DNA of 64,000 nt, taken from the NCBI GenBank assembly GCA_020430775.1, contig JAGQJE010000038.1:280-64279 (forward strand), read 5' to 3'. This DNA is from Myxococcales bacterium (lineage in GTDB: Bacteria > Myxococcota_A > Polyangia > Polyangiales > Houyiibacteriaceae). The notes below the pieces were generated by a model. The model saw only the letters and a program-made list of their open reading frames with translations, did no database searches and was not told the origin of the DNA. Each line of letters starts with the position of its first letter. Position 1 is the first letter of the stretch. Below, one piece after another: positions 1 to 62,304 of the stretch. The position numbers and the translations under genes are program-made.

Positions 1-49
1 GGGCACGGGCACGGCCTCGGGCACGGACACGGGCTCGGACTCGGCCTCG
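1..49 (+). repeat. G-rich hexanucleotide-period tract, truncated by the window edge
   Basis: Read directly: gggcac gggcac ggcctc gggcac ggacac gggctc ggactc ggcctc. Same unit family as 169-264. Confidence 0.8.
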
Positions 50-170
50 ATTCGTGGGAAGTAACTCCTCAGGCCGGCTACGGCCCACTACATGATGTGG
101 TCGACGACGGTCGGTGGCCACGAGATGTTGTGGCGCCTGCCGTCGACATCGAGTTGCTTCCCACGAATCG
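48..170. repeat. 14-bp terminal inverted repeats enclosing a 95-bp lower-GC core, nested inside the hexamer tract
   Basis: 48-61 CGATTCGTGGGAAG is the exact reverse complement of 157-170 CTTCCCACGAATCG. Both outer flanks carry the same CGGCCTCGG..GGGCTCGGACTCGGCCTCG repeat. Confidence 0.75.
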
Positions 171-264
171 GCCTCGGTCACGGGCTCGGACTCGGCCTCG
201 GTCACGGGCTCGGACTCGGCCTCGGTGCGGGATTCGGTTCGGGGTGTTCGGTGGGCGGGGAGGG
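169..264 (+). repeat. Hexamer-period G-rich tract with an exact 24-bp tandem duplication
   Basis: cggcctcggtcacgggctcggact occurs at 169-192 and again at 193-216. It then degenerates to ...gcgggattcggttcggggtgttcggtgggcggggaggg. Confidence 0.85.
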
Positions 265-373
265 TGCTACATCCGCTCGGGCTTTGGTCGCGCGCTGCCG
301 CGTGGGCTCCGCCGGCCGGACCGCGCCCGTGTGCGATGCGTCCACCATTTCCGCGTTGCAGGGGAGTCGACCG

Positions 374-27910: not shown

Positions 27911-29248
27911 TCAGCCGTCTTGGGGCGCGGCGCGGTTGCGCGTCTGCACGGCGAGGAGCTGTGCGGCCGCCGTCGCGGTGGCCACGGCGCCGACCGCGCT
28001 CGCGATGAGCGTGGCGGTCAGCGGATCGGGCAGCGCCACGCCCACGCCGGTCGCGGGCCACAGCCGCTCGGCTACGGAGAGGGCTACGTCCACCGCGAAG
28101 ACTCCGAGCAAGCCGTACGCCCACATGTGCGCGCCCGCGCGGGTGCGCGAGTCCATGAAGGCGAGCAGGGCGAGGATCGGCGCGAACAGGAAGGCGATGT
28201 GTACCAGCGGCGGCGCCCACGATTGCCAAGCGGCGCCGAGGCCGGCGAGCGCGTGCAGTTCGTCGGTCACCGCGAACCAGCCCGCGAAGAGCAGGATGCC
28301 CGCGAGGACGACCCAGCGGGCCAGCCGGGACGCTCGGTAGTACGACCGAAACAGTAGCCCGGCGCTCAAGACGACGACGCCGACGGTGAGGAGCGCGAAC
28401 GCACCGTCCAGGCCGATGCGCAGGTGCGCGAGGTTGCCGAGCACGAGCTCGACCACGCCGAGCACGGCGAGCGCCCAGGCGCGACGCGCGTAGGTCAAGC
28501 GGGCGCCGCTCGCCAGCCCGAAGCCCACGATGAGCGCGGACACGCCCGCCGTCACCCATGTGAGCGGCGACGACGCGCCCCCTAGCGCGAGCGCGAGCAC
28601 GAGCCCGGCGAGGCCGGACGCGGCGCACACGGGCCCAATCGTCCGCCGGCCGGGGCAGCGCGGCATGAGGTCGGCCTCGAGGATCTCCGAGGCGAGGACG
28701 GGGGGCGACACCGGTGGGGACGAGCCGGGCTGCACCGGTGGGGACGAGCCGGGCTCGCGCGGGGTGGCCTCCGGGGGCGCGGACGAGCCTCGCGGGGCCG
28801 GGCGCGACCCTCGCTCCGCCGCGAGGGCGTCGCCTGTCACCGCTGCGTCCGGGGGTGTGGGTGGACGCAGCGGCAGGATCTCGGCCTCCGCCCGTGATCG
28901 CAGCGCGTGTGCCTGGCTCTGTTCGGCCGGTGCGTCCGGGTGCAGCAAGGCGATCGCCCCGCTCGCATGCGCCCGGTGAGCGCTCACCTCGTGCGCGGGC
29001 GCGATGCGGCGCACGTTCTGGACGTCACGCGCCGCGTAAGGCGGCGCCCCGCCCGCGGCGGGGTCTCCGAGAGGGCGCGCGGGGCTCGCAGGGGCTGCCT
29101 CGGCGGCTCGCGGGCGCGGAAAAGCCGACTCGCTCGCCCACGTACCCGTCGGCACTGGCGTCGAGTCGCCTCGCGTCGAGGTGCCGCAGTCGGGGCACTC
29201 GGTGGCGTCGGCCTGGACCGACGATCCGCAATGGGCACAGGTCGTCAT
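27911..29248 (-). CDS. Hypothetical membrane protein: N-terminal zinc-ribbon, Pro-rich linker, ~8 TM segments
   Basis: MTTCAHCGSSVQADATECPDCG (CxxC...CxxC), a long P/A/S-rich region, then a hydrophobic C-terminal half. Start set to ATG 29248. Confidence 0.6.
   Translation of the reverse strand: MTTCAHCGSSVQADATECPDCGTSTRGDSTPVPTGTWASESAFPRPRAAEAAPASPARPLGDPAAGGAPPYAARDVQNVRRIAPAHEVSAHRAHASGAIALLHPDAPAEQSQAHALRSRAEAEILPLRPPTPPDAAVTGDALAAERGSRPAPRGSSAPPEATPREPGSSPPVQPGSSPPVSPPVLASEILEADLMPRCPGRRTIGPVCAASGLAGLVLALALGGASSPLTWVTAGVSALIVGFGLASGARLTYARRAWALAVLGVVELVLGNLAHLRIGLDGAFALLTVGVVVLSAGLLFRSYYRASRLARWVVLAGILLFAGWFAVTDELHALAGLGAAWQSWAPPLVHIAFLFAPILALLAFMDSRTRAGAHMWAYGLLGVFAVDVALSVAERLWPATGVGVALPDPLTATLIASAVGAVATATAAAQLLAVQTRNRAAPQDG
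28709..28756. repeat. 24-bp tandem duplication inside the Pro-rich linker
   Basis: caccggtggggacgagccgggct(g/c) appears twice, encoding GSSPPVQPGSSPPV on the minus strand. Confidence 0.85.
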
Positions 29249-30786: not shown

Positions 30787-31560
30787 ATGTTCGCGTTCTC
30801 CGTCACCCACCGCAGGCCCTCCGTTCGGCCCCTCGCGTCCGTCGCCGCGGCCTGCGCCATCGTCTTGGCGAGCCTCGCGCTCGGCGCGGCCGCCGCGCGC
30901 GCGCAGGGCGAGCCCTCGAGCGCGCCCGCGCCCTCGAGCCGCCTCGACGCGCGCGGCGTGGCTGCGCTGGTGCAGTCGTTCTACGACCAGATGCGCACCA
31001 TCGAGGCGCACTTCGAGCAGACCCGCTTCACGAAGCTCTACGACCGCACCGACCGGGCGCACGGCACGGTGGTCTTCAAGAAGCCCGGCCGCATGCGCTG
31101 GGACTACGACGCGCCGAACGGGCAGATCTTCGTCAGCGACGGTCAGACGCTGCGCATCTACCAGCCGCCGGAGGAGGGCGAGGCGCACGGCCAGGTCATC
31201 GAGCGCTCGGTCGACGCCGCGCAGCTCCCTGAGGCGCTCTCGTTTCTCACGGGGACGGGCCGGCTCGCCCGGGACTTCGAGATGCGCCTGCTCGAGCCAC
31301 CGGAGGGCAGCCCGGCGGACCTGTACGTCCTCGAGCTGCGGCCGCGCACCCCGAGCCCGCGCTACGACCGGGTGCTCTTCTTCGTGCGGGTCGTGCACGC
31401 CGGCGGCCGAGCGGCGGGCGTCATCGAGCGCGTCGTCATCCTCGACGCGGTCGGCAACCGCAACCAGTTCGACTTCAGCAAGCTGCGCTTCAACCGCGCC
31501 GTGCCGGACTCACGGTTCACGTTGAAGGTGCCGAAGGGGACCCGTCGCATCCGGAAGTGA
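30787..31560 (+). CDS. lolA: Outer-membrane lipoprotein carrier protein LolA-like
   Basis: Signal peptide ending AAAARA. Then FEQTRFTKLYDRTDRAHGTVVFKKPGRMRWDYDAPNGQIFVSDGQTLRIYQP. Confidence 0.7.
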   Translation: MFAFSVTHRRPSVRPLASVAAACAIVLASLALGAAAARAQGEPSSAPAPSSRLDARGVAALVQSFYDQMRTIEAHFEQTRFTKLYDRTDRAHGTVVFKKPGRMRWDYDAPNGQIFVSDGQTLRIYQPPEEGEAHGQVIERSVDAAQLPEALSFLTGTGRLARDFEMRLLEPPEGSPADLYVLELRPRTPSPRYDRVLFFVRVVHAGGRAAGVIERVVILDAVGNRNQFDFSKLRFNRAVPDSRFTLKVPKGTRRIRK

Positions 31561-33067
31561 CGCCGAGCCATCGCTCGACGCGGGGTCCCACCTCGGACCA
31601 GCGGTGGCGGGTGGCGCGCGCGTGACCGCGCTCGGCTAGGCGCCGGGCGAGCGCGGGGGTGTCCGCGAGTCGTGTGAGCGCTGCGGCGAGGGCGCCGGCG
31701 TCGTCCGGCGGGACGAGCAGGGCGGCGTCCTCTGCGCCGGTGAGCTCCGGGACGCCGCCTACGCGGGACGCGACGACCGGCAGCCCGGCGTACATCGCCT
31801 CGAGGAGCGCGACGGGCGCCCCCTCGGTGCGGCCGTTCGAGAGGCGGCGCGACGGCAGCACGAACGCGTCGGCGTCCGCGAGCAGCGCGGCCTTGTCGCG
31901 ACCGCGCACCGCTCCGACGAAGCGCACGGGAGCCCCGAGGCGCGCCGCGCGGCGTTCGAGCCGGTCGCGCTCGGGCCCGTCCCCGGCGACCACCAGCGTG
32001 ACGCGGCCCGCGGTCTTCGCGACCGCTTCGATCGCCACGTCGACGCCTTTGACAGGCACGAGCCGGCCGAGGGTGACGGCGCGCAGGGGACCGCTGGTCG
32101 ACGTGCGGCCCGGTCGTGCGGGTGGGCGCTCGAGGCCGAGCGCCGCGGGCTCGAAACCCATCGGCTGCACCTCACAGGGGGGCAGCGTGACGTGCACGCG
32201 CGCGGCGAGCTCCTCGACCATCGCGCGATGCTCAGCCGTCACGAAGCACAGCCGCGAGGTGCCACGGGCGATGCGCCGGAGGATCGCGCCGCGAGCAGGC
32301 AGGCGAGCCAGCAGGTGGACGTCCGCCGAGTGGAAGACCGCGAGGTGTGGGATCGCCCCCGCGCCTCGTGCGCGCGGGAGGCCGGCCGCGACCCACGCGC
32401 AGGGGAGCGCCCAGTGCGAGATGACCGCGTCCCAACGCCGCGACGCGCGCCACGCCGCCGCATAGAGCGCCGGCGGAAAGGTCAGCGCGCCGGGCCACGC
32501 CAGCGGATCGGAGGCGAGGTTCTCCGGTGCCCCGGCCCCGTAAAACGTCCGCTCGAGCGCCCGCGGCCACGCATACGCCACCCACCGCAGCGCGATGGGG
32601 TTGACGCCCTCGCTGCCGCTCGGGGAGGGGGGCACGCGCCCCCCTCCCAAACTCGACTTCGCCGCGCGATAGAATCGCGGCGAAGCCGACTTTGGCACCC
32701 ACCCCCGCGAGGGTCGTCGCCGTGGCGGCGCCTCCCGCATCGGCCCGCAGGAGGGTGGTCGTACGAGGTTGGTTGCACTCTTGCGGTAGCAAGACTGAAC
32801 CCAACCTCGGTGTGCCGTGGGTAGTTCGACGGGGTGACCCGCACCCGTGCCCGTGCCCGAACCCGTGCCCGTGCCCGAACCCGAACCCGAACCCGCGCCC
32901 GTGCCCGAACCCGAACCCGTGCCCGTGCCCGCGTCCCGTGGCTCCGGGGCGAGCACTTCGACCGTGTGACCGCGCGCCGCGAGCGCGCGCGCCATGCCCT
33001 CGACGAACGCCCCCGCGACGTCTCCCTCGAAGCGTGGGAAGCCCGTCGTCAGGATGCCGATGCGCAT
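31517..33067 (-). CDS. GT-B glycosyltransferase (family 4) carrying a ~113-aa in-frame insertion after residue ~44
   Basis: N-terminus MRIGILTTGFPRFEGDVAGAFVEGMARALAARGHTVEVLAPEP and C-terminus TEGAPVALLEAMYAGLPVVASRVGG are GT4-like. Residues ~45-157 are (GT/GS/GA)n plus an Arg/Pro/Ser-rich stretch. Confidence 0.7.
   Translation of the reverse strand: MRIGILTTGFPRFEGDVAGAFVEGMARALAARGHTVEVLAPEPRDAGTGTGSGSGTGAGSGSGSGTGTGSGTGTGAGHPVELPTAHRGWVQSCYRKSATNLVRPPSCGPMREAPPRRRPSRGWVPKSASPRFYRAAKSSLGGGRVPPSPSGSEGVNPIALRWVAYAWPRALERTFYGAGAPENLASDPLAWPGALTFPPALYAAAWRASRRWDAVISHWALPCAWVAAGLPRARGAGAIPHLAVFHSADVHLLARLPARGAILRRIARGTSRLCFVTAEHRAMVEELAARVHVTLPPCEVQPMGFEPAALGLERPPARPGRTSTSGPLRAVTLGRLVPVKGVDVAIEAVAKTAGRVTLVVAGDGPERDRLERRAARLGAPVRFVGAVRGRDKAALLADADAFVLPSRRLSNGRTEGAPVALLEAMYAGLPVVASRVGGVPELTGAEDAALLVPPDDAGALAAALTRLADTPALARRLAERGHARATRHRWSEVGPRVERWLGVTSGCDGSPSAPST
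32597..32837. other. Lower-GC, hairpin-dense segment inserted in the GT4 coding region
   Basis: Three strong hairpins: 32623-32632/32639-32648 (GGGAGGGGGG/CCCCCCTCCC), 32647-32666/32676-32695 (18 of 20 bp, loop cgatagaat), and 32767-32784/32789-32806 (15 of 18 bp, loop GGTA). Confidence 0.7.
32838..32940 (-). repeat. 16 consecutive CCCNNN hexamers (GGGNNN on the minus/coding strand)
   Basis: cccgca cccgtg cccgtg cccgaa cccgtg cccgtg cccgaa cccgaa cccgaa cccgcg cccgtg cccgaa cccgaa cccgtg cccgtg cccgcg. Encodes GTGTGSGSGTGAGSGSGSGTGTGSGTGTGAG. Confidence 0.9.
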
Positions 33068-33858
33068 CGCGTCGGCCCGCCGGTGGCCTCAGGGTAGGCC
33101 TCGTCGAGCGCCGCGTAACCCCCGGCCGCCCCGTCGCGGGAGCGCAGGGCGCTCCGGACCGCTACACGCCCGATCACCGCCGGCACGACGAAGAGCGCGT
33201 GGTGCAGACCCACGCCGCTGTCCTCCCCGGCATACACGGGCCTCACCCGGACGTCGCGGACGCGGGCGCCCGAGGCGTGCAGCGCGCCGAGGAGGTCGTT
33301 CGGGTAGCCGTAGCGCGGCCACAGCCGGTCGAGGTCGATCCGCGCCGCGGCGTGTCGCGACAGGGCGGTGTAGCCGCACTGCGAGTCGTGCACCGACAGC
33401 CCCGTCGCGCGCCGCGTCAGCCACGAAAGCGCGTGGTTGCCGATCCATCGGCTGAGGGGCATCTGGCGCCGCGCGTCGGGCCAGGCGAGCCGGTTGCCCT
33501 TCGCGTACTCGGCCTCGCCGCGGACGACGGGGTCGAGGAGCGCCGGCAGGTCGACTGGGTCCATCTGCGCGTCCGCCGCCATGACCGCGGCGACGTCGAC
33601 CTGTCGCGGACCTTGGGCGAACGCGGCGCGGTACCCGGTCGCGATCGCGGCGCCGACGCCGCGGTTGCGGCGATGCCGCACGACCTCCACGCGCGCATCA
33701 CCGACCGCCGCGGCGCGCGCCCCGGTGCCGTCCGTGCTCGCGTCGTCGACGACGATGATGCGGTCGACGAGCGCGGGCATGCCGGACAGGGCGCGCGTGA
33801 TGTGCGACGCCTCCTCGAACGCGGGCATCACCACCGCCACCCTCGCGCCCTGATGCAT
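33049..33858 (-). CDS. Family 2 glycosyltransferase (GT-A)
   Basis: VAVVMPAFEEASHI...RIIVVDDASTDGT and downstream DAQMD acidic motif. 19-bp overlap with the GT4 start. Confidence 0.8.
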   Translation of the reverse strand: MHQGARVAVVMPAFEEASHITRALSGMPALVDRIIVVDDASTDGTGARAAAVGDARVEVVRHRRNRGVGAAIATGYRAAFAQGPRQVDVAAVMAADAQMDPVDLPALLDPVVRGEAEYAKGNRLAWPDARRQMPLSRWIGNHALSWLTRRATGLSVHDSQCGYTALSRHAAARIDLDRLWPRYGYPNDLLGALHASGARVRDVRVRPVYAGEDSGVGLHHALFVVPAVIGRVAVRSALRSRDGAAGGYAALDEAYPEATGGPTRCASAS

Positions 33859-56633: not shown

Positions 56634-56691
56634 GGCGACCGCGTCGAAAAGGCGCTCACTGCCTGCGCGACGCCGCCTACACGCTCACCGC

Positions 56692-56740
56692 ACGCGAAGA
56701 AGCCGCCCCCTCGGTCGAGAGGTGGGCGGCTTCTTCGCGT
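56692..56740. terminator. Very stable hairpin between convergent fadL-like and pntB genes (candidate bidirectional terminator)
   Basis: ACGCGAAGAAGCCGCCC (56692-708) pairs perfectly with GGGCGGCTTCTTCGCGT (56724-40). No clear U-tract. Confidence 0.5.
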
Positions 56741-56765
56741 GCGGGGGCTAGGTCAGCGGGCTCGC

Positions 56766-61969: not shown

Positions 61970-61983
61970 GCCGGCGCGCCGCC

Positions 61984-62147
61984 GGGAGCAGGCGCGGGAG
62001 TCGGGATCGGGCACGGGATCGGGGCCGGGATCGGGCATCGGGATCGGGATCGGGCATCGGGATCGGGGCCGGGAGCGGGGTCGGGGTCGGGAGCGGGTGC
62101 GGGTGCGGGGGTACTCTCGGCGGGGGGGCGCGGGCGGGACGGCGGGC
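61984..62147 (+). repeat. G-tract array: about 19 GGG(G) runs with 3-nt spacers, then further G-runs
   Basis: gggagtcgggatcgggcacgggatcggggccgggatcgggcatcgggatcgggatcgggcatcgggatcggggccgggagcggggtcggggtcgggagcgggtgcgggtgcggggg. Starts 15 nt after the tkt stop. Confidence 0.9.
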
Positions 62148-62304
62148 TCTATCCACAGAACTCGCACAGTATCACACAGGATATTTTCGCGATTTCGTGT
62201 GATGTTACAGTAGCTTGTAGCATGTATCCACAGCCTGCACACAGGTCGTGCCCATGCTGTGCACGGTCGCTGCGCACGAAGCCACGGGCCGGCGCGATTT
62301 CGGC

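Follow-up and report, generated by a model that had tools for sequence, protein, structure and literature searches.

This report concerns a gene for a family 4 glycosyltransferase (GT4) in a stretch of 64,000 nucleotides from a Myxococcales bacterium (contig JAGQJE010000038.1 of assembly GCA_020430775.1; the whole stretch is referred to here as the window). Between strands β2 and β3 of the encoded enzyme, the gene carries a 339-bp insert that is non-coding in appearance but, judging from its sequence, most likely translated. We give a probability of roughly 0.55 to the reading that this insert is a lineage-specific, structurally unstable, modular tandem repeat, lying in frame in a permissive loop of GT4 and kept open by selection on the enzyme. 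Each module would consist of a GGGNNC microsatellite and a hairpin-dense core of ~200-230 bp, represented in the window by array 1 (32835..32930) and core A (32606..32836), both on the minus strand. But what kind of DNA is this, how does it vary, and is it read through by the ribosome?

An insert between strands β2 and β3

The host open reading frame (ORF; 31517..33067, minus strand, 516 aa in its short allele) has the two Rossmann domains of a GT-B enzyme of family GT4. Pfam finds Glycos_transf_1 (PF00534, E = 3e-34) and Glyco_transf_4 (PF13439), the best sequence match in the PDB is PimB' (3oka), the closest solved relative, and the fold resembles PimB', BshA and MshA, with Foldseek target-normalised TM-scores of 0.77-0.80 against PimB' and BshA. 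An earlier look at the letters of the window (the sequence-only reading) had noticed a GT4 N-terminus split from the rest of the protein by ~113 aa; Pfam and the spacing of conserved motifs agree with this. In 108 of 120 homologues the distance from LAPEP to TFYGAG is 25-37 aa (mode 27), against 130 aa in the window protein, which has ~103 extra codons between β2 and β3. Measured from VEVLAPEP to V.VRWVPY, the linker has 11-16 residues in 13 aligned homologues (~50% identity; all from Myxococcota, Polyangiales or Sandaracinaceae metagenome-assembled genomes) and ~114 in the window protein. The insert is absent from the 108 homologues measured. These include two (L001 and L002) in which a family 2 glycosyltransferase (GT2) gene, the GT4 gene and a convergent LolA gene stand in the same order, and which are thus positional orthologues. 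As had been claimed, the 339 bp are in frame and free of stop codons.

Where would such an insert sit in the folded enzyme? In the AlphaFold2 model the predicted local distance difference test score (pLDDT) is below 50 for residues 47-153, between a confidently modelled β2 (35-41) and an equally confident β3 (158-163), so the insert occupies a loop of the N-terminal Rossmann domain. The model therefore supports a location in a disordered, permissive β2-β3 loop, in line with the surface-loop position that the sequence-only reading had suggested. An intein was considered and rejected, as Pfam found only glycosyltransferase families in the 516-aa protein and the insert itself has a pLDDT below 50.

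Modules, copies and local variation

The GC content of core A (231 bp) at codon positions 1/2/3 is 0.65/0.69/0.74 and its codon log-likelihood is negative in all frames; lacking codon periodicity, it resembles non-coding DNA. It had been described as lower in GC than its surroundings, which holds for sub-segments (60-64%) and not for the core as a whole (70%, the window having 71% and the gene 75%). Three strong hairpins had been reported in it, and all three were recovered together with a fourth. H1 (32764..32809) has 21-nt arms at 86% and a 4-nt loop. H2 (32731..32754, minus strand) is the additional one, with a 9-bp stem that needs 2 G-U pairs and so forms on the gene-strand RNA only. H3 (32647..32695) pairs 18 of the 20 positions of its arms (32647-32666 / 32676-32695) around the loop CGATAGAAT, exactly as first described, and H4 (32623..32648) has the perfect 11-bp stem GGGAGGGGGGC/GCCCCCCTCCC. 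Compared with shuffled sequence, the core has fold z-scores of -5.3 (gene strand) and -4.5 (plus strand). When the gene strand of the 64 kb was divided into 1047 windows of 244 nt, the top rank went to 32575-32818, which covers most of core A; the only regions of comparable fold strength are intergenic, namely the element at 1-244 and a hairpin near 56.7 kb between convergent genes. No other gene of the window has an internal segment of non-coding character; where dips seemed to occur, they preceded the true start codon. The hairpin near 56.7 kb (56689-56743) has a perfect 18-bp stem (CACGCGAAGAAGCCGCCC ... GGGCGGCTTCTTCGCGTG), lies between the gene for a FadL-like outer-membrane protein and pntB, and is probably a bidirectional terminator without a T-tract.

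Array 1 is built of 16 GGGNNC units (GGGCAC, GGGTTC, GGGCGC, GGGTGC) and encodes (Gly-Thr/Ser/Ala)n. Tandem Repeats Finder places the hexamer at 32844-32940 in 16.0 copies, the number counted originally, and the window as a whole holds 31 matches to the GGGNNC pattern against 1.2 expected. With 16 G3 tracts, 3-nt loops and the G-rich strand on the mRNA, array 1 is a G-quadruplex-forming repeat by pattern; ViennaRNA with G-quadruplex energies predicts three 3-layer quadruplexes in it, lowering the energy by 10 kcal/mol. The encoded (Gly-Thr/Ser)n peptide, residues 47-84 (32816-32929), resembles the synthetic GS linkers of PDB fusion proteins (E = 1e-6 to 1e-4), which fits the character of a flexible linker. 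A direct repeat flanking the array at the protein level (GHTVEV / GHPVEL) was judged to be chance. Hexamers of the same type occur in two intergenic places of the window (1-226 and 61983-62109), and such arrays are common in other high-GC phyla; at 119 loci of other genomes, GGGNNC arrays were not generally linked to hairpin-dense flanks (Mann-Whitney p = 0.18).

Is the insert an accident of one assembly? Searches with the GT2 protein and the 372-aa protein under which the GT4 gene is annotated led to 16 contigs (L122-L137) from 14 metagenome assemblies. Seven of these, all from separate samples (L123, L124, L125, L127, L128, L133 and L134), carry the whole insert with both junctions at 99.9-100% identity, so it is not; altogether it is found in at least 8 contigs produced by two assembly pipelines. 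Other contigs hold a longer arrangement. The paths part at 32605..32606 (minus strand), where ...GAGCGGCAGCGAGGGC is followed either by GTCAACCCCATCG, which leads into β3 of GT4 (short path), or by ATAACAAACCCTCAG, which leads into a second core, core B (long path). L126, L129 and L130 run through the N-terminus, array 1, core A, core B, a spacer, array 2 and the first 35 nt of core A before the contig ends. L132 begins within core B; beyond the spacer and array 2 it has a complete core A, followed by the GT4 C-terminus and LolA. At the assembly level the short path is present in 8 contigs and the long one in 4. Core B shares ~87% identity with the 190 nt at the 3' end of core A, and the 38-nt spacer repeats part of core B. 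The long ORF reconstructed from these pieces has 2112 nt and encodes 703 aa without a stop, exceeding the window allele by 561 nt (3 x 187 codons); it thus contains head-to-tail units with a period of 561 bp, as expected of a tandem repeat. L126 and L132 differ by 24 nt in array 2, with 15 and 11 units respectively. When the unique 467 nt are shuffled, a given frame stays free of stops in only 3.6% of cases, and the chance of the right phase is 1/3, which argues that the long form truly lies within GT4. We infer that the short (339 bp) and long (~900 bp) forms are alleles of one locus.

The core is also a hot spot of point variation. Among the 16 contigs there are five variable sites in the 231 bp of core A against two in ~22 kb outside the insert, both of these in the same single contig and more than 6 kb away. 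The sites within the core span 32655..32766: 32655 C/T (9 contigs), 32707 C/T (5), 32738-32739 TG/CA (2) and 32766 T/G (1). They combine into at least six haplotypes, and one and the same haplotype borders on core B in some of the samples but on the C-terminus in other samples, which fits recombination or gene conversion among copies. This local excess of more than 200-fold, in a near-clonal natural population, makes the locus a natural test case for whether G-quadruplexes and palindromes cause instability in a high-GC bacterium. Between cores A and B, the pairing of H3 is kept, with two pairs changed on both sides, and H4 shows a matching 1-nt deletion in each arm; H1 has lost its outer stem in core B and is missing altogether from the spacer copy, H2 is not kept, and core B is as structured as core A (fold z = -5.9). 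The paired changes in H3 and H4 could reflect selection on structure or, equally, mutation templated by the opposite arm of the palindrome, since a covariation analysis of two sequence types has almost no statistical power.

A second array of the window also differs between contigs. Upstream of the potassium-transporter gene kup (~ window 1-373 and beyond), the length of the hexamer array and its upstream flank vary among contigs of the same population (L138-L143), many of which end there. Array instability is thus not restricted to the GT4 locus.

Reading through the insert, and other explanations

Is the insert translated? In the public annotation most of it is not. The NCBI entry for GT4 (MCA9528824.1) has 372 aa and starts at the GTG at 32633-32635, within the insert and in the loop of its last hairpin, H4, and the ENA gene calls agree. 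The N-terminal 45 codons and most of the insert are treated as intergenic, leaving a conserved β-α-β unit 414 bp upstream of the annotated GTG, in the same frame and outside the annotated gene. These 45 codons (β1, α1 and β2; 32933..33067, minus strand) are modelled with confidence by AlphaFold2, retain all 18 of the 18 invariant residues of the family alignment and have a GC1/2/3 of 0.78/0.53/0.89. The remainder of the enzyme, from β3 through the C-terminal Rossmann domain (31517..32605, minus strand), is intact, with a GC1/2/3 of 0.81/0.62/0.88 and no sign of decay. All length differences seen are divisible by three. The three sense frames of core A are free of TAA, TAG and TGA, where 3.7 such triplets would be expected (P = 0.005), and the antisense strand has 4 against 3.9 expected. 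Core B is read in another frame than core A for ~35 codons and then returns to frame, so what is conserved between them is not the peptide but the openness. The stop-free frame of the short allele says little by itself, as five of its six frames are nearly open. Taken together, the conserved N-terminus, the multiples of three, the openness of both cores and the depletion of sense stops favour a single translated polypeptide with a loop whose sequence would be irrelevant, over a pseudogene or a 372-aa product. Peptides predicted from reading through include GWVQSCYR and SATNLVRPPSCGPMR.

The sequence-only reading had also considered a recently inactivated gene whose frame stayed open through high-GC chance. 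In such a case the insert would have broken GT4, and any product would be the 372-aa protein without β1-α1-β2. The start chosen by the NCBI and ENA callers, the lack of a coding signature in the core, the nearly open frames just mentioned and the expected obstruction of expression by strong hairpins and predicted G-quadruplexes all speak for this. The repeat is, however, old enough for 13% divergence between cores A and B, and over that time the invariant residues and the GC3 of 0.89 were kept. The C-terminus shows no decay. Moreover, the long arrangement is in frame and stop-free too, the stop depletion is confined to the sense strand, and GT4 structures suggest that a GT-B enzyme is unlikely to fold without its first β-α-β unit. 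We consider a dead or truncated gene improbable.

Several observations weigh against the translated, unstable repeat that we prefer. The assembly k-mer (141) is shorter than core A (231 bp) and the long allele is known from assembly paths, not reads; the long form could consequently be a mis-join to a second locus that has cores A and B, and the short contigs could be a collapsed version of a longer repeat. The contigs perhaps come from one or two related sample series, which limits their independence, and some of the single-nucleotide differences may distinguish two copies of core A (A1/A2) rather than alleles. As arrays vary in 6-nt steps, preservation of the frame is partly automatic. Finally, the NCBI and ENA gene calls begin after most of the insert, and its translation is a prediction from the sequence.

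How might a locus of this kind arise and persist? The mechanism that we infer starts from structure-prone DNA, the G-quadruplexes of the array and the imperfect palindromes of the core, which would make the locus unstable. Arrays would lengthen or shorten by slippage, and a 561-bp unit would be gained or lost when core copies recombine unequally; the clustered single-nucleotide differences would stem from mutation templated by palindrome arms or from gene conversion among the copies. Selection on the enzyme would then purge variants that break the frame. The surviving alleles (339 bp and ~900 bp) would encode one polypeptide with a disordered loop of 100-300 residues, rich in Gly, Ser, Thr, Arg and Pro, in which the amino-acid sequence does not matter. 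If the insert is translated, a Rossmann-type enzyme tolerates 100-300 residues of sequence-irrelevant loop filler, and non-coding, structure-prone DNA can be seen becoming protein segments in bacteria. A bolder version, which we hold only tentatively and think unlikely as it stands, is that a composite repeat, made of a G-quadruplex array and palindromes, expands by itself and reshuffles within coding sequence, while selection on the enzyme keeps it in frame and stop-free in every sense frame. Should this be true, the repeat would be the bacterial equivalent of the coding minisatellites of eukaryotes and a route from non-coding, structure-prone DNA to a long disordered protein segment, and it could serve a cell-envelope glycosyltransferase as an adjustable spacer or as a means of setting its expression. 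In practical terms, the public annotation drops the conserved N-terminus of the enzyme, and since a gene caller reads the insert as intergenic, comparable inserts are probably under-reported.

Could the insert instead be a mobile, non-autonomous palindromic element that inserted in frame and was later duplicated locally? Candidates would be a miniature inverted-repeat transposable element (MITE), a repetitive extragenic palindrome (REP) or a relative of the Rickettsia palindromic elements (RPEs). The core is small, hairpin-dense and of non-coding composition, it sits in frame in a surface loop and is present in at least two diverged copies; in-frame insertion is documented for RPEs (PMC10969869), and the same genome has a convincing MITE-like element in another hexamer array (48-170, described below). 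The ends of core A, however, pair only as an interrupted closing stem (~15/22 matches, counted by eye on folds) and there is no clean terminal inverted repeat. GTCACCCCGTCG and GTCAACCCCATCG flank the core as a direct repeat that is not significant (shuffle p = 0.44), and there is likewise no significant sign that the starts of the units derive from the native junction. Searches at the DNA level covered the window and the collections named here, with the rest of the source metagenome-assembled genome not included; they found no other copy of the core in the 64-kb window, in ~920 kb of other loci, in plasmids or in phages, and a weak match at 28782-28824 was set aside as low-complexity sequence. 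Peptide-pattern scans in two frames of genome, viral and metagenome DNA, collections that do not contain the source genome, were empty. The encoded peptide has no match among 5.8 billion clusters or 1.84 billion representatives, and an A+B peptide search and an exhaustive phmmer search found nothing. A search with six-frame concatenated peptides gave no match among the 8000 candidates listed, a weak negative because low-complexity words probably filled the list. The known copies are all in tandem at one locus. Hence, of the idea that a surface loop tolerates an inserted repeat or MITE-like element, the loop stands (by AlphaFold2 and the orthologues without insert) and the repeat stands (by the tandem copies of core and array), and the MITE-like part does not, for want of convincing terminal inverted repeats, a significant target-site duplication or a dispersed copy in the searchable data. 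We regard a mobile origin as unlikely.

The MITE-like element at 48-170 is 123 bp long and lies upstream of kup (start 374). Its terminal inverted repeat, CGATTCGTGGGAAG[T/C]AACTC, is 20 bp long and matches at 19/20; the fold z-score is -7.5, and an 8-bp direct repeat, CGGCCTCG, flanks the element, with arrays on either side at 1-49 and 168-226. Excising it restores a perfect three-copy array with a 24-bp period. It has no similarity to the GT4 core. In one contig of this locus (L140:1-32; ENA ERZ27309321 k141_165676), an Illumina adapter remnant, CACTCTTTCCCTACACGACGCTCTTCCGATCT, is followed by a different array flank joined to the MITE-like element, and this contig end is unreliable.

Less likely again is that the hairpins act in cis as a structured RNA or DNA signal, for instance an internal attenuator or a processing site tuning GT4 against the co-transcribed GT2, or that they belong to a small RNA, with coding being incidental. 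The embedded structured RNA put forward by the sequence-only reading draws support from the top rank of 32575-32818 among gene-strand windows, from the G-U pairs that restrict H2 to the gene-strand RNA, from the two double-sided pair changes and the matched deletion by which H3 and H4 are kept between A and B, and from the equally structured core B (z = -5.9). Palindrome-templated mutation would, however, give double-arm changes without any selection, the two sequence types leave covariation almost no power, and neither H1 nor H2 is conserved in core B. Rfam 15 gave no hit at gathering score; the best sub-threshold matches (E = 0.13-2.8) concern single hairpins, and even at E < 10 matches stay at chance level. 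No curated covariance model of Rfam 15 matched, which also speaks against a self-splicing intron, a ribozyme or a known structured RNA, and searches of the insert found no tRNA or tmRNA and nothing resembling a promoter or a terminator. A chimeric or mis-assembled insertion, to which the many contigs that break in or beside the insert (L122, L131, L135, L136, L137) and the adapter remnant at the neighbouring locus might point, is very improbable given near-identical inserts and junctions in at least 8 contigs from different samples and two pipelines, both junctions lying within one continuous conserved gene.

Known systems and neighbouring features

The closest known systems are the Rickettsia palindromic elements and intragenic tandem repeats, or variable-number tandem repeats (VNTRs). 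RPEs are palindromic insertions that lie in frame within genes (Ogata et al. 2000, as summarised in PMC10969869). They share with the GT4 insert a palindromic body of ~100-250 bp without coding signature, a place in frame in a housekeeping enzyme gene, a site compatible with the fold and the addition of a peptide. The 339-bp and ~900-bp inserts likewise keep their host ORF open. RPEs, however, form families with dozens of members scattered over unrelated genes, each family with its own conserved peptide. The known GT4 copies all lie one behind the other at a single locus, the reading frame differs between cores A and B, and the unit includes a microsatellite; neither dispersed copies in unrelated genes (in the data searched, the rest of the source metagenome-assembled genome excepted) nor a conserved encoded peptide were found. 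With VNTRs, coding minisatellites and the mycobacterial polymorphic GC-rich sequences (PGRS) the insert shares head-to-tail units within an ORF, lengths in multiples of three, a GC-rich sequence and a Gly-rich, low-complexity peptide; like VNTRs it also shows apparent copy-number differences within one population and a local hot spot of variation. It differs from VNTRs and PGRS in having a large (561 bp), composite unit of hexamer array and hairpin cores without codon periodicity, and in lying not in a surface protein but in a cytoplasmic enzyme, in a loop of its Rossmann-fold core. The insert thus departs from RPEs in its local, tandem arrangement without a conserved peptide, and from VNTRs in its large composite unit, its non-coding composition and its enzyme-core loop.

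Glycosyltransferase genes of Neisseria, Haemophilus and Campylobacter are known for simple-sequence contingency loci (PMC5953494). These resemble the GT4 insert in being hypermutable repeats in a glycosyltransferase gene that vary within a population, but they switch on and off by frameshift, with a unit that is not a multiple of three, while the changes in GT4 (6n, 24 and 561 nt) preserve the frame. A phase-variable contingency locus was rejected for this reason, the 6-nt unit and the length changes of 24 and 561 nt all being divisible by three. Like MITEs, the GT4 core is small, structured and non-autonomous; unlike them, it has no clear terminal inverted repeats, no significant target-site duplication and no dispersed copies in the data searched.

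Around the host gene, the GT2 gene (33049-33858; MCA9528825.1) lies upstream, overlaps the start of GT4 by 19 bp and is translationally coupled to it. Farther upstream is glmS (GlmS, MCA9528826.1), and the LolA gene converges on the 3' end of GT4. The other intergenic (GGGNNC)n array, ~125 bp at 61983-62109, directly follows the stop codon of a transketolase gene (61969) and lies upstream of feoA (~62342). The array is G-rich on the strand that carries the two genes, with several G-quadruplexes predicted. Between it and feoA, at 62140-62260, the DNA is low in GC and carries the repeated motifs TATCCACAG / TATCACACAG / TGTGATGTTACAG, which could be operator sites, e.g. Fur-type boxes.

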